Assembly (NCBI RefSeq): GCF_000016985.1
Contig: NC_009633.1
Span: forward strand, 2,211,539-2,275,538
Reading direction: 5' to 3'
Source: Alkaliphilus metalliredigens QYMF
GTDB lineage: Bacteria; Bacillota; Clostridia; Peptostreptococcales; Natronincolaceae
DNA length: 64,000 nucleotides
In this document: positions 30,685 through 52,045 of the stretch, piece by piece
How positions within the stretch are numbered: the first letter of the stretch is position 1
Layout: every line of letters begins with the position of its first letter
Program-made: the position numbers and the translations under genes
The notes under the pieces: generated by a model
What the model saw: only the letters and a program-made list of their open reading frames with translations
Databases searched by the model: none
What the model was told of the DNA's origin: nothing

Positions 30685-31284
30685 TTGATAGATTGGCTTA
30701 CAGAAGTGTTAGTATTTGATAGGATTTATTGGTATTTAGCCATACCCTTCACCGTATTGTTGGTAATACAGCTAGTGGCGACTTTTGTAGGGATTGGCGG
30801 TGAAGGGGGCCTTGATGGCGGAGAAGATGGAATGGATCTAGGAGATGATGGTGATTTTGAACCGGGATTTCAAATATTTACTGTGAAAAACTTCATTACC
30901 TTTTTTGCAGTATTTGGATGGGCTGGAATCACATTTTCTAATGCAGGATTGGGACAATTCACTACCGTTTTATTATCCACCATACTTGGTATTATTGTAC
31001 TCCTCATTGTATCGGCACTTTTTTATTTTATTACAAAGCTTGCCGACAGTGGGACCATGGATATTCAACGGGCTAAAGGTGTCACTGGAGAAGTGTATCT
31101 GCGGATTCCTGCCAAAAGAAATGGCATGGGAAAAGTAAGTATCAAGCTTCAAGGTTCTTTTAGGGAATTGGATGCCATGACAGATGAAGATGATGTGATT
31201 ACAACAGGACATATTATTGTTGTAAAAGATGTAGTCAGTAATAGTATTTTATTAGTCGAAAAAATGAACAAGGGGGATGCTTAG
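30685..31284 (+). CDS. NfeD-like membrane protein (YuaF-like), partner of flotillin
   Basis: N-terminal TM helices plus a C-terminal OB-like domain. Immediately upstream of, and abutting, the flotillin gene. TTG start 6 nt after GGAGGT. Confidence 0.65.
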   Translation: MIDWLTEVLVFDRIYWYLAIPFTVLLVIQLVATFVGIGGEGGLDGGEDGMDLGDDGDFEPGFQIFTVKNFITFFAVFGWAGITFSNAGLGQFTTVLLSTILGIIVLLIVSALFYFITKLADSGTMDIQRAKGVTGEVYLRIPAKRNGMGKVSIKLQGSFRELDAMTDEDDVITTGHIIVVKDVVSNSILLVEKMNKGDA

Positions 31285-32717
31285 TGGGTTCAACATATGG
31301 AGTAATTTTAATAACGGTTATTGTAGTCGTGATATTTGGAACAATTGCGGCGCTTTTCGCAAGGTTTAAAAGATGTCCATCGGATAAGATTCTAGTTGTA
31401 TATGGTAAAGTGGGGAAAGAAGGAGATGAAAATAGGTCTTCTAAATGTATTCATGGAGGGGCCGCATTTGTATGGCCTGTGATTCAGCATTCTGAGTTTT
31501 TAGATTTGACTCCTTTATCCATAGAAGTAAATCTTCAAAATGCCCTGAGTAAGCAAAATATCAGGGTCGATGTACCTTCAAGGTTTACAGTGGGAATTTC
31601 TACTGAACCAGGGATCATGCAAAATGCCGCCGAAAGATTATTGGGATTAGGTCTTGCAGAAATACAGGAGTTGGCAAAGGACATTATCTTTGGTCAGCTA
31701 AGATTAGTCATTGCAACCATGGATATTGAGGAAATTAATACTGATAGAGATAAATTTCTTGAAGCTGTTTCTAGCAACGTAGAATCGGAGCTTAAAAAAA
31801 TAGGTCTACGATTAATCAATGTAAACGTAACAGATATTAATGATGAGTCGGGATACATACAGGCCCTAGGAAAAGAAGCGGCTGCTAAGGCAGTCAATGA
31901 TGCGAAAAAGAGTGTGGCTGAAAAGGATAGAGATGGATCCATTGGTGAAGCACAGGCCAGACGAGACCAAAGAGTTAAGGTTGCTGAAGCTGATGCCACA
32001 GCAGTAGAGGGTGAAAACAGATCTAAAATCACTGTAGCCAACTCTGATGCAGAGAAAAGAGAGCGGACTGCTGAGGCTGAGAGAAGAGCCAGTGCTTCAG
32101 AAAAGGTTCAATCAGCAAAGGCACTAGAGGAAGCTTATTTAGCTGAAGAAGAGGCAGAAAAATCTAGGGCTAGAAGAGAAAAAGCTACAATGGAAGCAGA
32201 TGTACTTGTTCATGCACAAATTGAAAAGCAAAAGTTAGAAATTGAATCAGAGGCCCAGGCTGAAGAATTCAGAAGAATAGCCAGAGGTGAAGCAGACGCC
32301 ATATTCTCTAAGATGGATGCACAGGCTAGGGGTACCAAGGAAATGCTTGAAAAACAAGCAGAAGGTTTCCAAAAGCTTATTGGAGCTGCCGGTGGGATAC
32401 CAGAAAAAGCAGTGATGATGATGATCGCTGATCGACTTCCAGAGCTAGTGAAAATACAGGTAGAAGCAATTAAAGGCATTAACATTGATAAAGTAACTGT
32501 ATGGGATAACATGGGTGGTGGAAAAGATGGTGGAAAGCCAGCTACAGCCAACTTTTTATCAGGAATGATGCAATCACTTCCACCTCTACAGGATATATTT
32601 AATAGTGCTGGTTTGGATTTACCAAACTATCTTTTACAAACAAAAGAAACCAAGGAAATTCCTATGAACACAAAGGAAGTCAACACAGAGAATCCTATAG
32701 AAAATAATCAAGAATAA
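31284..32717 (+). CDS. floT: Flotillin (SPFH/band-7 domain, FloT/YuaG-like)
   Basis: N-terminal TM, SPFH domain, long EA-rich coiled coil 'AEAERRASASEKVQSAKALEEAYLAEEEAEKSRARREKA'. Confidence 0.85.
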   Translation: MGSTYGVILITVIVVVIFGTIAALFARFKRCPSDKILVVYGKVGKEGDENRSSKCIHGGAAFVWPVIQHSEFLDLTPLSIEVNLQNALSKQNIRVDVPSRFTVGISTEPGIMQNAAERLLGLGLAEIQELAKDIIFGQLRLVIATMDIEEINTDRDKFLEAVSSNVESELKKIGLRLINVNVTDINDESGYIQALGKEAAAKAVNDAKKSVAEKDRDGSIGEAQARRDQRVKVAEADATAVEGENRSKITVANSDAEKRERTAEAERRASASEKVQSAKALEEAYLAEEEAEKSRARREKATMEADVLVHAQIEKQKLEIESEAQAEEFRRIARGEADAIFSKMDAQARGTKEMLEKQAEGFQKLIGAAGGIPEKAVMMMIADRLPELVKIQVEAIKGINIDKVTVWDNMGGGKDGGKPATANFLSGMMQSLPPLQDIFNSAGLDLPNYLLQTKETKEIPMNTKEVNTENPIENNQE

Positions 32718-32839
32718 TCGCAATGAAGGAAATTTAATCACACTCTTTAAATAAATAATTCTAGATCAACACAACTCCAAACTTAAATAACATACATCTT
32801 TAGTCGTTTAAAAAGAAGTTAAAGGCGTAAGAATAAAAA

Positions 32840-32880
32840 AGCATGATTTCTATGAATTTAGAAATCATGCTGTTTTATTT
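32840..32880 (+). terminator. Intrinsic terminator after flotillin
   Basis: agcatgatttc...gaaatcatgct + gttttatttg. Confidence 0.7.
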
Positions 32881-33063
32881 GATTGGGATTAAGGAGAATC
32901 TATTTATGAATCAACATTACAACAATTAGTAGATGAAAGGAGGCAATTTGTGATAGTATTAGAATAATCGTTTAACAAATGAAATTATACTTTTAATCCT
33001 GATCATAAAGGGTAAATAAATGGATATATTTACTCTTAATATAAAAACTATTTGGAGGTAAAC

Positions 33064-33135
33064 ATGAAACTAAATCCGATTATCAAAATAAATCTTCAAT
33101 TCCATCATCATCACAAACTGCGCTTGGAGCTATAG
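33064..33135 (+). CDS. Putative His-rich leader peptide (MKLNPIIKINLQFHHHHKLRLEL) upstream of hisS
   Basis: RBS GGAGGT 4-5 nt before ATG. Four consecutive His codons (cat cat cat cac) at 33103-33114. Followed by alternative hairpins and an intrinsic terminator before hisS. Confidence 0.45.
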   Translation: MKLNPIIKINLQFHHHHKLRLEL

Positions 33136-33143
33136 AATTTTCT

Positions 33144-33236
33144 GTAGACACAAGCGCTATTGGTGTTTGTGTCTACGATGGTCGGCTTAAATGAAGCTAC
33201 GTAGACAATTATGTCTATGTAGCTTTTGTGTTTTAT
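33144..33236 (+). promoter_or_regulatory. Attenuator RNA structures: a 10-14 bp hairpin, then an intrinsic terminator
   Basis: Hairpin 33144-33176 (gtagacacaa / ttgtgtctac). Terminator 33194-33225 (14-bp stem, one GU) plus U-tract 33226-33236. The hairpin 3' arm (tgtctacg) is also complementary to the terminator 5' arm (cgtagaca), giving a possible 8-bp antiterminator. Confidence 0.5.
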
Positions 33237-33263
33237 AAAACAATATAAAAGGAGGAATAAACA

Positions 33264-34574
33264 ATGGATCTTGAATTAAAAAATGTAAAAGGAACAAAAG
33301 ATTTTTTCCCAAATGAACAAATTATTAGAAATGGAATTATTAAGAAACTGCAAGAGGTTTTTGAACTTTATGGTTATCAACCACTGGAAACCCCTACACT
33401 TTACTATTTAGAGGTTTTAGCATCGAAATACGCAGGGGGAGCAGAAATTCTGAAGGAAACCTATAGTCTAAAGGATCAAGGAGAAAGAGAATTAGGATTA
33501 CGATATGATTTGACTATTCCTTTTTCAAAGGTAATAGGTATGAACCCTAACTTAAGAATGCCTTTCAAACGCTATGAGATTGGAAAAGTCTTTAGGGATG
33601 GACCAGTAAAATTAGGACGAATGAGAGAATTTATACAGTGTGATGTAGATGTCGTAGGGGTAAAGTCAATGATGGCAGAGGCTGAGTTGATGTTTATGGC
33701 AACTGAAGTATTTGATAAATTAGGGCTTGATATTTATCTATCCTATAACAATCGAAAATTGTTATCTGGGACGCTAATGAAGCTGAAAATAAACAAAGAA
33801 CTTGCCAGTGACGTGATACTCTCTTTAGATAAAGTTGAAAAAATAGGAATAGAAGGGGTTAAAAAAGAACTTTTGGAGAAGAACCTACAACCAGAGGTAG
33901 TGGAGAACATTATCGAGCTATTAAACAATAAAGAGGCGGCTTCCATAGATTATTATAAAGGAATAGCGTCAAATTCATTAATGCAAGAAGGAATTCAGGA
34001 ACTAGAAGAGCTTAATGATTATCTTGATGCCATGGGTATTGGAAGTAAAGTAAAGTATAATCCCTTTTTAGCAAGGGGACTTGAAATTTACACGGGGACT
34101 GTATATGAGATATTCCTAAAGGATGGCAGTATTACATCGAGTATGGGCGCAGGTGGAAGATATGATGATATTATTGGAAAGTTTATTCAAAATGAGGTGG
34201 GATATCCAGCGGTAGGTATTTCCTTTGGTCTTGATGTTATATACACAGCATTGAGCATGAAGAGGGATAATGAATTAGAGTCAAATTTAGATGTTTATAT
34301 TATTCCCCTAGGTACTGAGGCTGAAGCCTTGAAGATGGCTTGTGAATTGAGAGGACAAGGAATTAAAGTAGACATAGATATGACAGAGCGAAAGCTCAAG
34401 AAAAGACTTGATTATGCTAATAAAGAAAAAATTCCTTATGTGTTAATACTGGGAGAAGATGAAGTGAAGAGCCAACGGATTAAAATGAAGGATATGAAAA
34501 GCGGTACAGAGGAAGAAATGAAGATATCTGAAATAGGAAATAATGTATTGAGGCGAATACAAAGTTTAACATAA
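33264..34574 (+). CDS. hisS: Histidine--tRNA ligase
   Basis: 'KGTKDFFP', 'RYEIGKVFRDGP', 'QCDVDVVG', class II motif 3 'GGRYDDI', plus a C-terminal anticodon-binding domain. Confidence 0.9.
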   Translation: MDLELKNVKGTKDFFPNEQIIRNGIIKKLQEVFELYGYQPLETPTLYYLEVLASKYAGGAEILKETYSLKDQGERELGLRYDLTIPFSKVIGMNPNLRMPFKRYEIGKVFRDGPVKLGRMREFIQCDVDVVGVKSMMAEAELMFMATEVFDKLGLDIYLSYNNRKLLSGTLMKLKINKELASDVILSLDKVEKIGIEGVKKELLEKNLQPEVVENIIELLNNKEAASIDYYKGIASNSLMQEGIQELEELNDYLDAMGIGSKVKYNPFLARGLEIYTGTVYEIFLKDGSITSSMGAGGRYDDIIGKFIQNEVGYPAVGISFGLDVIYTALSMKRDNELESNLDVYIIPLGTEAEALKMACELRGQGIKVDIDMTERKLKKRLDYANKEKIPYVLILGEDEVKSQRIKMKDMKSGTEEEMKISEIGNNVLRRIQSLT

Positions 34575-34593
34575 AAAGGATTTCATTAAAACA

Positions 34594-34628
34594 AGAAGAA
34601 TATCTTTAGATAAGATATTCTTTTTTTT
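34594..34628 (+). terminator. Intrinsic terminator after hisS
   Basis: aagaatatctttagataagatattc + tttttttt. Confidence 0.75.
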
Positions 34629-34665
34629 GTTTAAAAGTAAATATTCAATTGATGGGGAGGTTATT

Positions 34666-35658
34666 ATGAAAAAACAGTGCATCCAAGTGGAGAGTAATCA
34701 TAAGACTTTTCATGCCAAGGAATCAGAACTTAATAAAAGTCTAATTATAAATACAATCATGACCAATTCCCACGATACAATTTATTTTAAAGATAGAAAT
34801 TCTACATTTCTTTTAAGCAGCAAGGCACATGCATCACTATTTGGTATTGATAATCCTATGGAGGTTATTGGAAAAAATGATTATGATTATTTTCCTGAGT
34901 ATTTTGCTAACAATGCTTATCATGATGAAGAGCAAATCATGAGGACAGGTGAGCCCATTATCAGTAGAATTGAAAAATTAATTAAAGCAGATGGTGAGAT
35001 CATGTGGCTTTCGGCTTCTAAATATCCGCTATATGATGGGCAGGGAAAGATTATTGGTACCTGGGGCACCTCTAGGGATATCACACCTTTGAAAAAAGCA
35101 GAAGAAGAGTTGACTAGCTTGAATGAAAAGCTAGAGGAAGCAAACAGGCAACTCAGGATTTTATCAGCTATCGACAGTCTTTCTGGACTTTATAATCATA
35201 GACATTTCTTTGAAGAATTGAATAAAGCATTTGAGCTTTACACAAGACAAAAAGAAGAAGGAAGTAGCCATGGCTTTTCTGTTATTTTATTTGATGTTGA
35301 TAATTTCAAGGTAATCAATGATAAACATGGTCATTTAATGGGAGATGTAGTAATTAGACAAATAGGGGAAATTATGAAAAGAAATACCCGTTCCACCGAT
35401 AGTTGTTTTAGATACGGTGGAGATGAATTTGCAATACTACTGCCAAATACCAGTATTGAGGATGCAAGACGAATTGCAGAAAAGATGCGGGTAGCTATAA
35501 AAAACACAGCCATTGCCTCTGAGCATAGTGAATTGAAAATTACTGTCAGTTTAGGTGTTGCCTCTTGCTGTGAAGCTAAAAGTGTTAAGGATTTATTTCG
35601 AAAATCTGATGAAAAGCTTTATTGTTCTAAAAATACAGGAAAGAATATGGTAAGTTAA
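34666..35658 (+). CDS. PAS-domain diguanylate cyclase (GGDEF)
   Basis: PAS 'DYFPEYFANNAYHDEEQIMRTGEPII'. 'RYGGDEF' active site. RBS ggggaggt before ATG 34666. Confidence 0.85.
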   Translation: MKKQCIQVESNHKTFHAKESELNKSLIINTIMTNSHDTIYFKDRNSTFLLSSKAHASLFGIDNPMEVIGKNDYDYFPEYFANNAYHDEEQIMRTGEPIISRIEKLIKADGEIMWLSASKYPLYDGQGKIIGTWGTSRDITPLKKAEEELTSLNEKLEEANRQLRILSAIDSLSGLYNHRHFFEELNKAFELYTRQKEEGSSHGFSVILFDVDNFKVINDKHGHLMGDVVIRQIGEIMKRNTRSTDSCFRYGGDEFAILLPNTSIEDARRIAEKMRVAIKNTAIASEHSELKITVSLGVASCCEAKSVKDLFRKSDEKLYCSKNTGKNMVS

Positions 35659-35868
35659 AGGAACAAGGAAGCCAAATATTTCAGATTATGCAAACACTGA
35701 AGGAAGAAGGAAATCTAAAGAAGATCACACCAGTATTATCAAGTACGATGAAAAAAGAGCAGGTGTAGAAGTGAGAGGGTAAGGACCATTACATTGAAAG
35801 GCAAAGTCTGATTAATTAATCTCATAAATTGAAATACTAAAGATAAATCATGCAGAGAGGTGATTCTT

Positions 35869-37275
35869 GTGAGTTTACAGGGTTTTTATTTACTTCCCCA
35901 TCCCCCCATTGTGGTTCCAGAGGTAGGAAAAGGAGAGGAAGAAAGGATTCGGGATACCGGTAATAGTTTGCATACCGTAGGAAAGGAGATTGCTGAAAAA
36001 TCTCCTAATGTGATTATACTTGTCACACCCCATGGTACCATGTTTCAAGATGCCATTGCACTTGCCGATGCTGATGAGATTTATGGAGATTTGAAAAGCT
36101 TTGGGGTTCCGAATGTTTCTATGAGGTCTCCGATCCATAAAGGTCTCACAAGTAGAATATTTGAACTTGCATATCATAAAGGCATATCTGTTGTCATGGC
36201 AACAAATTCTCTTTTAGATCAATATCATACTTCTCTTTTTTTGGATCATGGTGCTTTGGTTCCGCTGTATTTTATCAATCAGTATTATAACAAGTATCAA
36301 CTTGTACATATTACCTATGCAGCTTTAAGTGACATTGAGTTATATAAATTAGGTATTGAAATCAATAATGCAGTACAAGAACTAAAGGAAGATGCCATTT
36401 TGATAGCAAGCGGCGATTTATCTCATAAATTAAAGGAAGAAGGACCTTACGGACATCATCCTTCTGGTGAAAAATTCGACGCAGCTTTTCTTGACCATTT
36501 ACAAAGAGGAGATGTGGTGGGTGTATTAAGCATGGATGAAGAAATGATCTGTCATGCTGGGGAATGTGGAAGGCGTTCCGTAGCCATTTTACTTGGTGCA
36601 TTAGAAGGGAAGGAGTTTAGTGGCGATCTTTTAAGCTATGAAGGCACATTTGGTGTTGGCTATGGTGTCATGAGGTTTGATGTTCTTTCGGAGGATGCGC
36701 CTACATTAGAGAAATTAGAAGAACTACGGAGCGCTACTTATGAAAAAAGAAAATATGAAAGTGACCCCCATGTGAGACTGGCTAGAGAAAGTTTAACGAC
36801 TTACCTAGACTGTGAAGAAGTACTTAAAGAGCTTCCTGACTATGTAACAGAGGAAATGACAAATACAAAAAGAGGGGTGTTTGTGTCTCTAAAAATGCAT
36901 GGAGAGTTAAGGGGGTGCATTGGAACTGTATTTCCTACAACCAACAATATTGCTGAGGAGATTATACGCAATGCAATTGAAGCAGGGCTTAATGATCCTA
37001 GGTTTTATGAAGTTGAAGAAAAAGAGCTTATGGACATTGTTTTTTCAGTGGATGTGCTAACAGAGCCTGAATATGTTTCTAAAGAAGCCTTAAGTCCAAA
37101 GGAATATGGTGTCATTGTAAGTAGCAAAGGGAAAACAGGACTGCTACTTCCTGATCTAGAAGGGGTCGATACAGTGGAAGAACAGTTATCAATTGCCTTA
37201 GAAAAAGCCGGCATAAAGTCCAGTCAAATGTATAAAATACAGCGATTTAAAGTCATTCGCCATAAAGAGAATTAG
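35869..37275 (+). CDS. Fusion protein: MEMO/LigB-like class-III extradiol-dioxygenase-fold domain plus AMMECR1 domain (AmmeMemoRadiSam system proteins B+A fused)
   Basis: N-terminal 'PHPPIVVPE...ILVTPHG' (LigB/MEMO-like). C-terminal 'KRGVFVSLKMHGELRGCIGTVFPT...AIEAGLNDPRF' (AMMECR1). GTG 35869 after GAGAGG. Confidence 0.7.
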   Translation: MSLQGFYLLPHPPIVVPEVGKGEEERIRDTGNSLHTVGKEIAEKSPNVIILVTPHGTMFQDAIALADADEIYGDLKSFGVPNVSMRSPIHKGLTSRIFELAYHKGISVVMATNSLLDQYHTSLFLDHGALVPLYFINQYYNKYQLVHITYAALSDIELYKLGIEINNAVQELKEDAILIASGDLSHKLKEEGPYGHHPSGEKFDAAFLDHLQRGDVVGVLSMDEEMICHAGECGRRSVAILLGALEGKEFSGDLLSYEGTFGVGYGVMRFDVLSEDAPTLEKLEELRSATYEKRKYESDPHVRLARESLTTYLDCEEVLKELPDYVTEEMTNTKRGVFVSLKMHGELRGCIGTVFPTTNNIAEEIIRNAIEAGLNDPRFYEVEEKELMDIVFSVDVLTEPEYVSKEALSPKEYGVIVSSKGKTGLLLPDLEGVDTVEEQLSIALEKAGIKSSQMYKIQRFKVIRHKEN

Positions 37276-37291
37276 GAAGAAGGTCAACACC

Positions 37292-38146
37292 ATGAAAAAA
37301 GAAGCCATGTTTTATGAAATGAGTAAAGAAAAAGTTCATTGTTTCTTATGCCCACATAATTGTGTTATTGAAAATGGACATACAGGTAAGTGCAATGTAC
37401 GAACCCATGAAGATGGGAAACTTTATACGATAAATTATGGAGAAGTGACTTCTGTCTCTTTAGATCCTATCGAAAAAAAGCCACTTCATTATTTTAGGCC
37501 TGGTAGCCAGATTCTCTCCGTAGGGAGTTTTGGATGTAATTTTGTTTGTGGTTTTTGTCAAAACTATGATATCTCGCAATTTAAAGCAAAAAGTGAATTT
37601 GTATCTAAAGAAGAATTGATAAAGACGATATTGACAGCAAAAAATAACATAGGGGTGGCATTTACCTATAATGAGCCAAGTATCTGGTATGAATATGTAT
37701 ATGATTGTGCAAGGTTTTTAAAAGAAACGGACCCGAAGGCAGCGGTAGCCATTGTGACAAATGGATATATTAGCCAGGAACCCTTAAAAGAGCTACTACC
37801 CTATGTAGATGCCATGAATATTGATTTGAAGAGCATTAATGGTAAATATTATAAAGCTCTTTGTGGTGGAAGTTTAGAACCAGTATTAAAAACCATCGAA
37901 ACAGCTGCAAAAGCATGCCATGTGGAAGTCACGACATTATTAGTCACTGGTGAAAATGACACATTAGAGGAAGTAGAGGAAATTGCAAAAATTTTAAGTC
38001 ATGTAGACCCAGGCATTCCCTTACATCTATCAAGGTATTTTCCGAGATATAAGCTGGAGAACGCTCCAACAGACATCGGTTTTATGAGAAAAGCAGAAGA
38101 AATTGCTAGAAAATACCTGGATAAAGTCATTTTAGGAAATATATAG
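37292..38146 (+). CDS. AmmeMemoRadiSam-system radical SAM enzyme (PFL-activase-like)
   Basis: 'GSFGCNFVCGFCQNY' (Cx3Cx2C). Position next to the AMMECR1 gene. Confidence 0.75.
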   Translation: MKKEAMFYEMSKEKVHCFLCPHNCVIENGHTGKCNVRTHEDGKLYTINYGEVTSVSLDPIEKKPLHYFRPGSQILSVGSFGCNFVCGFCQNYDISQFKAKSEFVSKEELIKTILTAKNNIGVAFTYNEPSIWYEYVYDCARFLKETDPKAAVAIVTNGYISQEPLKELLPYVDAMNIDLKSINGKYYKALCGGSLEPVLKTIETAAKACHVEVTTLLVTGENDTLEEVEEIAKILSHVDPGIPLHLSRYFPRYKLENAPTDIGFMRKAEEIARKYLDKVILGNI

Positions 38147-51508: not shown

Positions 51509-51577
51509 CTCTTGAACAATTCGTTTGTTTTGCGATAAATTTCAAATATATGAGAATGGTGGACATAAAAAAAGCCC

Positions 51578-52045
51578 CTATGATGCAGAGGCTTTGCTAT
51601 TGCTTACCTTTAAGTTTTTAATAAATTGAAGTTGGCTAATTACATGATCTGCTATAGAGTGAATTTTATCGACATCGCATTGATATTCTGAAATAGTGGC
51701 TAAGTAAGAGTGAATGAGGGTATTTAACTGTTCGTTGATAATATGAATTTGATCACTTGAGTCATTGGGCATTTCTTTGATAAGTACCTTCTTAACTGCT
51801 TCCTCAATATATAAACTTCTTATATCGATAGAATTGGTTTGTAATAGCTCACCTAAAGAAACACCAAGGGAATTTGTAATTCTATCTAGAAGACCAAGTC
51901 TAAAGACCTCATGATTTCCATTTTCAACGTTGCTCAATTGGCCAGTTGAAATATTAATATGCTTTGCAAATTCCACAGAAGTTAAGTTTTTTTCTTTCCT
52001 ATAATTTCTAATGTTTTTACCTAAGGTTTTATGGATATCAGACAT
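51578..52045 (-). CDS. XRE-family HTH transcriptional regulator
   Basis: 'LGKNIRNYRKEKNLTSVEFAKHINISTGQLSNVENG'. RBS aggggggag. Confidence 0.85.
   Translation of the reverse strand: MSDIHKTLGKNIRNYRKEKNLTSVEFAKHINISTGQLSNVENGNHEVFRLGLLDRITNSLGVSLGELLQTNSIDIRSLYIEEAVKKVLIKEMPNDSSDQIHIINEQLNTLIHSYLATISEYQCDVDKIHSIADHVISQLQFIKNLKVSNSKASAS

Follow-up and report, generated by a model that had tools for sequence, protein, structure and literature searches.

Which mechanism controls transcription of hisS in Alkaliphilus metalliredigens QYMF? Canonical Firmicute aminoacyl-tRNA synthetase genes, including hisS, are commonly T-box regulated (PMC2965389), and a first-pass annotation of the DNA analysed here, a 64-kb stretch of this genome (the window), had proposed a ribosome-mediated attenuator in the place of the expected T-box. 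The gene in question (33264-34574; this and the following features lie on the plus strand unless stated otherwise) encodes a PRK12420-type histidine--tRNA ligase of 436 aa. Its product matches the A. metalliredigens QYMF protein at 100% identity and is a complete HisRS, with the Pfam domains tRNA-synt_His and HGTP_anticodon and a score of 695 bits for NCBIfam NF009085 (NF009085/PRK12420 equivalog cut-off 540 bits). The PRK12420 clade is closer to eukaryotic/archaeal-type HisRS than to canonical bacterial HisRS. The first-pass statement that Firmicute hisS genes normally carry a T-box, which this locus lacks, was right about the locus, whereas the expectation itself fits canonical hisS and not an enzyme of this clade. 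Comparison of orthologous loci indicates that hisS genes of the PRK12420 clade are usually preceded by a His leader peptide.

Ahead of hisS we found an ORF of 23 codons followed by TAG (33064-33135, stop codon 33133-33135), whose putative translation is MKLNPIIKINLQFHHHHKLRLEL*. A Shine-Dalgarno (SD) sequence, GGAGG, at 33054-33058 precedes its ATG by 5 nt. Within the ORF, four consecutive His codons, CAT CAT CAT CAC (33103-33114, segment 0), form the proposed sensing site, so that reading the sequence anew yielded the same SD-led 23-codon ORF with four His codons that had been described before. On its own, such a CAYx4 run is mildly unusual (2 in the window versus 0.31 expected). The regulated gene has an SD sequence of its own, AGGAGG at 33250-33255, outside the switching helices. 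It is unpaired in the centroid structure, and the minimum-energy fold pairs part of it solely in a weak long-range helix that is none of the switching ones.

The leader ORF runs into a chain of five complementary segments, the last two of which make up the intrinsic terminator. Segment 1 (33120-33136), made up of the stop codon and the codons that close the leader, has as its partner the 5' arm of P1, the first hairpin: 33120-33126 pairs with 33151-33157 and 33130-33136 with 33141-33147. As a hairpin this 1:2 pairing reaches -20.5 kcal/mol (z -5.6). Segment 2 (33141-33158) is the P1 5' arm itself, with either segment 1 or segment 3 as partner. The alternative, P1, joins 33143-33158 to 33162-33177 (16 bp, -22.2 kcal/mol, z -7.7); the strong hairpin previously placed at 33144-33176 is thus refined to 33143-33177. 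Segment 3 (the P1 3' arm, 33162-33177) together with its flank GAUGGUCGG spans 33162-33185 and has three partners: segment 2 in P1, the His codons in a helix termed P0, and the terminator 5' arm in the antiterminator (33170-33182). The His codons double as the 5' strand of P0, and their partner, 33177-33185, is a GAUGG motif just 3' of P1. In the window the P0 duplex is weak (-8.0 kcal/mol, p 0.043); it is far stronger in relatives, for example L002 (-18.7) and L005 (-17.2); duplex scoring found no P0 in Fictibacillus L019.

The antiterminator, 3:4, pairs 33170-33182 with 33196-33207 (12 bp with one bulge; hairpin -13.3 kcal/mol, z -3.25). An alternative pairing of 8 bp (33170-33177 with 33200-33207) had been noticed earlier; it is real, and is the core that extends to these 12 bp. 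The intrinsic terminator occupies 33193-33234, with the 5' arm (segment 4) at 33193-33207, the loop at 33208-33211, the 3' arm (segment 5) at 33212-33226 and a U-rich tract that ends at 33234, 29 nt ahead of the hisS ATG (33264). Its stem, 33193-33207 with 33212-33226, comprises 15 bp (-20.4 kcal/mol, z -8.6), compared with the 14-bp terminator at 33194-33236, ~28 nt before hisS, of the first-pass annotation. The z values of 1:2, P1, 3:4 and the terminator in the window all lie between -3.3 and -8.6. Altogether, every feature described earlier exists, with slightly refined coordinates. Folding of the window alone also proposes a pairing of 33076-33084 with 33178-33186, which was seen in none of the relatives.

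How could a ribosome on the His codons influence a terminator that far downstream? The caveat that the His codons sit upstream of the first hairpin is correct as a description of the geometry. As an objection it dissolves, since segment 1 pairs with the P1 5' arm and the His codons pair with GAUGG. Ribosome position therefore reaches the switch via a longer chain and not by direct overlap. We propose, with a probability of about 0.85, that the leader is a ribosome-mediated (leader-peptide) transcription attenuator which would couple transcription of hisS to the supply of charged tRNA-His. Ribosome-mediated attenuation instead of a T-box is supported in silico, by comparative and by folding evidence.

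We infer the stalling, the kinetic order of folding and the response to histidine as follows. Two sets of helices would compete. In the terminating set, P1 (2:3) would be locked by P0, in which the His codons pair with the GAUGG flank, and the terminator (4:5) would form. In the read-through set, the 1:2 pairing would free segment 3 and its flank for the terminator 5' arm (3:4). When His-tRNA is scarce, a ribosome would stall at the first His codons and cover them, so that P0 would be blocked while segment 1 stays uncovered and 1:2 could form as the RNA emerges. With 1:2 in place, 3:4 could form and RNA polymerase would continue into hisS. With an ample supply of His-tRNA, translation would proceed across segment 1 as far as the stop codon that lies within it, which would prevent 1:2 and allow P1, and then the terminator, to form. 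After release of the ribosome, or without translation, P0 and P1 would keep the leader in the terminating fold.

Conservation of the leader was analysed across orthologous loci. At least three CAY codons within 400 nt upstream of hisS were present at 17 of the 22 distinct loci, versus 0.026 expected per locus (binomial P 2.5e-23, a value uncorrected for relatedness among the loci). Because the His run recurs in this way, the leader is more than a chance arrangement, and a His-codon run is conserved in relatives as the first reading would have it. Short SD-led ORFs in which 3-4 His codons follow one another stand ahead of hisS in Clostridia, Tissierellia and Bacilli. A purine run resembling an SD sequence lies upstream of the leader ATG in Firmicute orthologues too, and an SD precedes the ORF in all of those having the element. 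The short ORFs end in, or just past, the His run. Within the run the sole variation is between CAU and CAC; the remaining peptide varies and is poorly conserved. In every Firmicute leader the stop codon is either within segment 1 or directly ahead of it. Three bacterial loci of the clade (L001, L027 and L010) lack three His codons in a row, and no leader ORF was found at L001 (L021 is the same sequence) or L027. In the CPR, represented by two Roizmanbacteria loci, the upstream ORF has three His codons in L011 and two in L010, so that an ORF with at least three is present at one of the two, without an SD. L011 is arranged as a classical four-segment attenuator with its His codons within segment 1; the CPR design is independent.

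In an alignment of 16 leaders, 89.7% of the cells were paired in the terminating fold and compensatory changes occurred at 23 of its 38 pairs, 12 of the 15 terminator pairs among them. Its covariation score of 0.461 (0.272 when shuffled) was reached by none of 500 shuffles. The same alignment, which had not been fitted to the read-through fold, gave 87.7% paired cells for that fold as well, with compensatory changes at 16 of 26 pairs and a covariation score of 0.426 (0.261 shuffled; 0 of 500 shuffles reach it). Slid controls were 31-51% paired, and a MAFFT-only alignment gave the same covariation picture. Across alignments, the P0 columns were 87-92% paired, the inner helix of segment 1 was 97-99% paired (compensatory changes at 3-4 of 7 pairs) and the antiterminator helix 85-89% (5-7 of 12 pairs). 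Scored as a duplex, 1:2 beat shuffles at p<=0.007 in 13 of 13 loci, and for 3:4 the corresponding p ranged from 0 to 0.067 (13 loci scored). These patterns indicate that the mutually exclusive antiterminator fold is maintained by selection. A covariance model built from 14 leaders found two leaders on which it had not been trained, one from Brevibacillus (79.6 bits) and one from the B. cereus group (39.1 bits, E 2e-6).

Rfam holds no family for the Firmicute His leader, and no Rfam family reached its gathering score anywhere in the 64-kb window. Below that threshold, one family recurred. The trpB motif (RF04312), an orphan riboswitch candidate described by the Breaker laboratory in 2024 (PMC11109978) with more than 900 representatives in Firmicutes and Fusobacteria, matched the leader in the window with 41.1 bits and six other leaders with 33-44 bits; its gathering score is 59. 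In these 7 of 16 leaders the match covered the full length of the model (positions 1-107), and in each of the seven RF04312 was the best Rfam family. The authors of the motif describe the same architecture, with P1 as the first of two hairpins, a terminator as the second and the antiterminator located in P1's right (3') shoulder (PMC11109978). Their motif shares the Firmicute distribution and the variable downstream genes, and by eye the consensus strings AYAGAUAC, UCURUG and GUAGRC are common to the seven matching His leaders. P1 and the terminator could thus form a switch like the trpB motif that binds a ligand or a protein, with the His ORF incidental. We consider this improbable. All scores are under the gathering threshold of 59 bits, an SD-led ORF with an in-frame His run is kept across very divergent leaders, segment 1, which overlaps the ORF end, covaries with P1, and P1 is conserved no more than the alternative pairings require. 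For the trpB motif, which was compared here via its consensus and model, a leader ORF has not been reported.

The resemblance also permits the converse relation, which we raise tentatively and regard as doubtful: the trpB motif may be the P1-plus-terminator half of a leader-peptide attenuator superfamily shared with the His leader, and not a ligand-binding riboswitch. Such a modular Firmicute scaffold would be retargeted by the codon run in a mini-ORF upstream of the published boundaries. The suggestion is drawn from the full-length, sub-threshold matches of 7 of the 16 His leaders and the shared architecture. If true, it would account for one of the larger orphan riboswitch candidates. A pattern with 20 specified bases, taken from the RF04312 consensus, had one metagenome match (L032), which proved to be a chance match without RF04312 signal, and 0 matches in viral contigs.

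For the preferred reading, a leader-peptide attenuator that senses His-tRNA, the position of the ribosome has to matter. We folded the leader of the window, cut off ahead of the terminator 3' arm, under a mask for a ribosome with an assumed footprint of -15 to +12 nt. With no mask, P1 formed and the terminator 5' arm was unpaired (0 of 15 nt). With the A site on His1, 1:2 and the antiterminator formed and 13 of the 15 nt of the terminator 5' arm were paired. P1 returned, and the terminator 5' arm was free, when the A site was on either the last His codon or the stop codon. In the masked folding that the first-pass annotation had suggested, the window leader thus switched to the antiterminator solely with a ribosome at the first His codons. 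With the same assumed footprint, switching was clear for the window, L014, L024, L006, L009 and L031 and weak or absent in L015, L004 and L019; the Lutispora leader L015 folded P1 under every mask, and L004 and L019 changed little. A scan of ribosome positions placed the antiterminator-permissive ones on or just before the His codons in most loci. In the window they were His1-His2 only, since with His3 or His4 in the A site the +12 footprint extends into segment 1. There is noise in the ensemble probabilities: even without a mask, the truncated RNA of the window has a value of 0.67 for 'terminator 5' arm paired upstream'.

A reversed logic, in which a stall masks segment 1 and leads to termination, was rejected for the first His codons, because with the +12 nt footprint segment 1 is free and the antiterminator is the minimum-energy fold. 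It is still a concern where the ribosome stalls at the third or fourth His codon.

The masked folds also bear on whether the element would sense His-tRNA specifically or the general rate or coupling of translation, in the manner of the ermC leader or of Rho/ribosome uncoupling. Any ribosome parked at the His-codon positions gives the identical predicted fold, and in the equilibrium ensemble of the window, positions upstream of the His codons are permissive as well. However, the one strictly conserved coding feature is a His run, ahead of the gene that charges tRNA-His, and homologous leaders stand before histidine biosynthesis operons. General translation sensing is accordingly an account to which we give little credence.

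At equilibrium, the full-length RNA always takes the terminator fold: summed over helices, the terminating fold amounts to -42.6 kcal/mol and the read-through fold to -33.8 kcal/mol. Since the terminating fold is the more stable one, read-through would depend on kinetic trapping. The same observation would suit hairpins that act as an unregulated partial terminator or as an RNA-stability element, with accidental alternative pairings. This explanation is very unlikely, as covariation in the read-through fold is as strong as in the terminating fold and both 1:2 and 3:4 beat shuffles at nearly every locus. A T-box that has degenerated or diverged and reads uncharged tRNA-His directly, to which the CAU/CAC run could in principle lend a specifier and the habits of canonical Firmicute synthetase genes some plausibility, has next to no chance, given a leader of ~170 nt with two simple hairpins and without Stem I architecture, and given that the Rfam scan proposed earlier found no T-box at E<=10 in 32600-33400 or at E<=5 across the whole window, and reported none in the orthologous leaders at E<=1 or E<=10.

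The leader is real and conserved, yet it belongs to a family already predicted in related bacteria. Naville and Gautheret (2010; PMC2965389) predicted a His leader peptide upstream of hisZ and of a hisS paralogue (hisS*) in the B. cereus group, a paralogue they treated as specific to bacilli; the family described here spans Clostridia, Tissierellia and Bacilli. In the B. cereus-group leader, MRTFNTSFQLHHHT* is followed by the same hairpin chain, and the HisRS is of the same clade. The B. cereus-group HisRS proteins fall into the PRK12420 clade and are ~59% identical to the Fictibacillus member, like the A. metalliredigens protein. From its clade and the matching description, the B. cereus-group member is probably the hisS* paralogue of the 2010 paper. 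The leaders differ in that the B. cereus-group ORF stops one codon after the His run, where the window's leader is six codons longer. By eye the B. cereus-group leader also has no GAUGG 3' of P1, and hence no P0, whereas the window has a weak one.

Ashniev et al. (2022; PMC9413887) described candidate His attenuators of his biosynthesis operons in Peptostreptococcaceae, Lutispora, the B. cereus group and Erysipelotrichales. Our family HMM matched two of their hisZ leaders (Additional file 6) over the full length, those of Terrisporobacter glycolicus (37.0 bits) and Lutispora thermophila (31.4 bits). In both, the profile of the hisS leaders aligns from end to end, from the His codons and segment 1 across P1 and the CUAUGAUGG flank to the terminator. 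The leaders of that study regulate biosynthesis operons; hisS is absent from the paper. In A. metalliredigens, the his operon, hisR and yuiF were assigned to the HisR repressor (PMC9413887), and the attenuator is therefore known in this organism only before the synthetase gene.

We also inspected the surroundings of the leader. A bidirectional terminator-like hairpin (32840-32871, no strand assigned) closes the upstream SPFH gene and sets the 5' limit of the hisS regulatory region. A crude HisR operator core, TTTA-N6-TAAA, taken from three A. metalliredigens sites of Ashniev et al., was not found in 32872-33063; the nearest occurrence, at 32799-32812, is beyond the upstream terminator. A search of 32872-33062 for a sigma-70-type promoter of the leader gave no convincing candidate, as no site exceeded 8/12. 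By eye, TAATAT at 33037-33042, which lacks a good -35, aligns with the -10 box of L014.

The 16-sequence alignment and the matched published his-operon leaders would support an Rfam family, with which such leaders would no longer be misread as missing T-boxes or as unexplained terminators before an essential-looking gene. In Bacilli and Clostridia, one attenuator family would serve histidine biosynthesis operons as well as a HisRS that is eukaryote/archaeal-like and has spread horizontally. In A. metalliredigens, the attenuator on hisS would work beside a different system, the HisR repressor, on the his operon.

Several well described systems resemble this proposal in part. The T-box likewise raises a synthetase when charging of the cognate tRNA falls, by a choice between terminator and antiterminator; it differs in that it reads uncharged tRNA directly, without translation, and none is present at the hisS of the window. 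The enterobacterial his (RF00514) and trp leaders work on the principle proposed for the window's leader: a leader with tandem regulatory codons is translated, and hairpins that exclude each other determine whether the terminator forms. The enterobacterial his leader also has a chain of more than four segments. The window's leader has no sequence or covariance-model similarity to RF00514, and the enterobacterial His_leader model had no match at E<=10 in 32600-33400. In contrast to the enterobacterial leaders, the regulatory codons of the window lie upstream of the first competing segment and would act by leaving segment 1 free and vacating P0, not by masking segment 1. The leader thus illustrates a switch built on a longer chain, whose regulatory codons would vacate a helix and leave the next segment free.

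The classical case of a synthetase gene under a leader peptide rich in the cognate residue is the E. coli pheST attenuator, with its pheM leader peptide (Rfam Phe_leader, RF01859). It parallels the hisS leader as an aminoacyl-tRNA synthetase gene preceded by such a peptide, and differs in phylum, sequence and structure, all of which are unrelated. The window contains a single Phe_leader match (51565-51641, minus strand; 29 bits, sub-threshold), which we rejected as a gene-end terminator.

A short ORF (33064–33135, peptide MKLNPIIKINLQFHHHHKLRLEL) precedes hisS in the window. Its start codon lies 5 nt downstream of an SD sequence (GGAGG, 33054–33058), and it contains four consecutive His codons, CAT CAT CAT CAC, at 33103–33114. 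A 16-bp hairpin, P1 (33143–33158 with 33162–33177, -22.2 kcal/mol), and a 15-bp terminator (33193–33207 with 33212–33226, -20.4 kcal/mol, U tract to 33234) follow, before the SD sequence (AGGAGG, 33250–33255) and ATG (33264) of hisS. Thus, the leader ORF, His codons, hairpin and terminator described in the first-pass annotation were all confirmed in the window sequence. The 8-bp antiterminator proposed there was also recovered and proved to be longer, with 12 bp and one bulge (33170–33182 with 33196–33207). A second exact copy of CATCATCATCAC occurs on the minus strand at 32412–32423, antisense inside an SPFH/Band 7 gene (31284–32717); lacking ORF or terminator context, it was taken as a chance match.

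We then compared 22 distinct loci of this HisRS clade, drawn from assembled genomes and metagenomes (designated by L numbers). At least three CAU/CAC codons in a row were found within 400 nt upstream of hisS in 17 of them, against a background of 0.026 per locus (binomial P = 2.5e-23, uncorrected for relatedness). A short ORF held the His run in 17/17 loci and was preceded by an SD sequence in all 16 Firmicute loci. The leader peptides read MKLKNSIKINLHHHHRQRL and MDFINTAKANLQLHHHS in the metagenomic loci L014 and L012 (HisRS identity 71% and 73%), MIYAVVAKLNNHIHHHRKGACS in Lutispora thermophila (L015), MFINYCLIKKLHHHHRKHL in Clostridium polyendosporum (L031), MNIKNLNNLNQSSKLHHH in Wukongibacter (L030), MNNIITLMQLHHHT in Fictibacillus gelatini (L019), MRTFNTSFQLHHHT in the B. 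cereus group (L033) and MIGLRTFLQLHHHH in Brevibacillus (L035). Only the His run was conserved, and inside the run the codons differed only by synonymous C/U exchanges in their third position. The His-run ORF was missing at two archaeal and two bacterial loci (L001, identical in sequence to L021, and L027). L001 is among the closest relatives (HisRS 71%); its region 2330–2500 kept a promoter-like TTGCTA...TATTAT and the terminator, having lost the His ORF, segment 1 (the ORF end, see below) and most of P1, so that a terminator remains before hisS with no evident antiterminator. In Dethiothermospora halolimnae (L005, 2339–2459), a 28-nt unit, repeated 4.3 times in tandem (consensus CGTAATCCCTGTGAGTTGTTGAGGGATT, each copy with a small GGGATT...AATCCC palindrome), separates the attenuator terminator from hisS.

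When the leaders were placed side by side, the end of the ORF (segment 1) resembled the P1 3' arm (segment 3), and the P1 5' arm (segment 2) resembled the terminator 5' arm (segment 4), so each segment is able to pair with either neighbour. The leader is thus a five-segment chain with an additional codon-pairing helix, P0. Segment 1 spans 33120–33136, that is, codons 20–23 and the stop codon, and pairs with segment 2 (33120–33126 with 33151–33157; 33130–33136 with 33141–33147) in a hairpin of -20.5 kcal/mol, close to P1 in stability. P0 joins the His codons to the GAUGG(U) directly 3' of P1 (33102–33109 with 33177–33185, -8.0 kcal/mol) and reaches 12 bp in L002, L003, L005 and L030. Tested against dinucleotide shuffles in the 13 loci scored, the 1:2 pairing was significant in 13/13 (p<=0.007), the antiterminator 3:4 gave p values from 0 to 0.067, and P0 was significant in 7/13, including the window; it was absent from the Fictibacillus leader.

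Both folds were supported by covariation. In a MAFFT alignment of 14 leaders, the terminating fold (P0, P1 and terminator) was paired in 83.9% of cells, with compensatory changes in 16/38 pairs and a covariation of 0.370 (shuffled 0.251); the read-through fold (1:2 and 3:4) was paired in 86.5%, with 11/26 pairs and 0.406 (shuffled 0.250). A model-based alignment of 16 leaders, including those of B. cereus and Brevibacillus, gave 89.7%, 23/38 and 0.461 (shuffled 0.272) for the terminating and 87.7%, 16/26 and 0.426 (shuffled 0.261) for the read-through fold. As only the terminating fold was used in fitting this second alignment, its read-through counts carry no bias toward the read-through fold. 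All four values were matched in 0 of 500 shuffles, and sliding the 3' partner by 1–3 columns lowered pairing to 31–51%. These alignments show that both folds are under selection; a pair of conserved folds that exclude each other is what marks a switch.

To follow the effect of ribosome position, each leader was cut just before the terminator 3' arm and folded with an assumed footprint masked (-15 to +12 nt from the first base of the A-site codon). Without a mask, the window leader formed P1 and 0/15 nt of the terminator 5' arm were paired. Placing the A site at the first His codon gave 1:2 plus the antiterminator (13/15 nt paired); at the last His or the stop codon, P1 formed again and the arm was free. 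L014, the closest functional relative, gave 0, 11, 11 and 5 of 14 nt for no mask, first His, last His and stop codon. In a codon-by-codon ensemble scan, which was noisy, the His codons fell on the permissive interval or immediately ahead of it. The upstream limit of this interval, which depends on P0, was clear in L014, L030, L005 and L002; the downstream limit, where the footprint masks segment 1, was clear in the window, L009, L031 and L006. Leaders L015, L004 and L019 hardly switched at equilibrium. The terminating fold was the more stable one in every full-length RNA; as in classical attenuators, read-through would therefore have to rely on the order in which the helices fold while the RNA is transcribed.

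We propose that, when His-tRNA is scarce, the ribosome would stall at the first His codons, covering the P0 strand and stopping short of segment 1. Segments 1 and 2 of the emerging RNA would then pair, segment 3 together with its flank would capture the terminator 5' arm, and the polymerase would enter hisS. With plentiful His-tRNA, the ribosome would cross segment 1 up to the stop codon, whose position is within or immediately upstream of that segment in every Firmicute leader, so that 1:2 would be blocked and P1 and then the terminator would form. Once the ribosome is released, P0 and P1 would hold the off state. This chain through segment 1 and P0 answers the earlier caveat about the position of the His codons relative to the first hairpin. 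Taken together, the finding is real and the attenuator interpretation of the first-pass annotation is supported at the level of sequence.

Related leaders have been predicted before. A histidine leader peptide was predicted upstream of Bacillus hisS* (a hisS paralogue) and hisZ, the two leaders being similar (Naville and Gautheret 2010, PMC2965389), and His-leader attenuators were predicted before the his operons of the B. cereus group, Peptostreptococcaceae, Lutispora and Erysipelotrichales in a study that does not mention hisS (Ashniev et al. 2022, PMC9413887). The leaders of the B. cereus group and Brevibacillus were left out of the training set of a covariance model, which still detected them at 39.1 bits (E = 2e-6) and 79.6 bits, respectively. 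A profile HMM of the 16 leaders matched two hisZ leaders given in Additional file 6 of PMC9413887 over their full length, that of Terrisporobacter glycolicus at 37.0 bits and that of L. thermophila at 31.4 bits. Judged by these matches, the window element belongs to the published Firmicute His-leader family. In the literature searched we found no experimental test of any member; the S. aureus ilv-leu leader is a reported experimental precedent for a leader-peptide attenuator in a Firmicute (PMC5794164). The kind of element was already predicted computationally, and what is new here is the host lineage and a clearer structural model.

No Rfam family reached its gathering score in the window. 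The best Rfam match of the window leader and six others was the trpB motif (RF04312), full-length at 33–44 bits (gathering score 59): window 33141–33234, its sole match in 64 kb, L002 2371–2478, L003 2378–2482, L030 943–1054, L012 871–969, L014 1081–1176 and L024 995–1084. These matches cover the P1-plus-terminator half of the His leader. The motif, an orphan 'strong riboswitch candidate', combines P1 with a terminator, has its antiterminator in the 3' shoulder of P1 and precedes various genes; its authors could not exclude a classical attenuator (PMC11109978). From this sub-threshold likeness, the trpB motif may belong to a related leader-peptide attenuator, as its 3' half. A sub-threshold Phe_leader match at 51565–51641 (minus strand; 29 bits, E = 0.88) was merely the terminator closing a coding region.

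A T-box, the usual expectation for a Firmicute hisS, was searched for with Rfam, and neither it nor the enterobacterial His_leader matched even at E<=10; the first of these negatives agrees with the absence of a T-box consensus claimed earlier. The expectation itself did not hold: the enzyme (33264–34574, 436 aa, 100% identical to histidyl-tRNA synthetase of A. metalliredigens QYMF) is an equivalog-level member of NCBIfam NF009085/PRK12420 (695 bits, cut-off 540) and therefore not the canonical Firmicute hisS. It contains both catalytic and anticodon-binding domains. Among solved structures, it is nearest to HisRS of the eukaryotic cytoplasmic and archaeal types (6nhi, human 4g84, Thermoplasma 1wu7), and its matches to canonical bacterial enzymes (S. 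aureus 1qe0, T. thermophilus 1adj, E. coli 1kmm) were much weaker. Relatives with 57–73% identity are dispersed over Clostridia, Tissierellia and Bacilli, and the HisRS of the B. cereus group, Brevibacillus and Fictibacillus fall in the same clade. HisRS from archaeal MAGs are ~50% identical, L007 and L008 (Nanoarchaeota and Methanosarcinales MAGs) lacking the leader. This identity and the eukaryote- and archaeal-like nearest structures point to an inter-domain history of the PRK12420 clade.

Two Candidatus Roizmanbacteria (CPR) loci, L011 (2359–2460) and L010 (2372–2475), carry a His-codon mini-ORF (MLKRDIKFVFHHHLH and MKIFCLSNGVHHFLPNGG, respectively) and a terminator before a HisRS only 35% identical. 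In L011, the 17th locus with a His run, the attenuator is of a plain four-segment type, and segment 1 itself contains the His codons. These loci reach the same end as the Firmicute leaders by a different route. Neither mini-ORF has an SD sequence, and a TATAAT box lies ~6–7 nt upstream of each ATG, a spacing which suggests leaderless mRNAs.

Upstream of the leader, no convincing sigma-70-type promoter was found in 32872–33063; comparison with L014 favours TAATAT at 33037–33042, with a poor -35, as the best candidate. The same region contains a 7-codon ORF with an SD sequence (32906–32929, MNQHYNN). In A. metalliredigens, control of the his operon, hisR and yuiF has been attributed to the repressor HisR (Ashniev et al. 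2022, PMC9413887), and the three operator sites given there share a crude core, TTTA-N6-TAAA. The leader region of hisS contained no core of this type. The core occurs 15 times in the window (7.5 expected), including 32799–32812 (TTTAGTCGTTTAAA); control of hisS by this site is doubtful because it lies upstream of a bidirectional terminator (32840–32871).

Directly 3' of the hisS stop codon, an AT-rich hairpin is followed by eight T (34590–34627, GAAGAATATCTT...AAGATATTCTTTTTTTTT), which suggests that hisS is monocistronic; the terminator scan missed it because its stem has too few G-C pairs. Further downstream lie genes for a PAS-GGDEF diguanylate cyclase (34627–35658), a LigB/AMMECR1 fusion protein (35860–37275) and a radical SAM protein (37292–38146), the latter two of which look like an AmmeMemoRadiSam-type pair.
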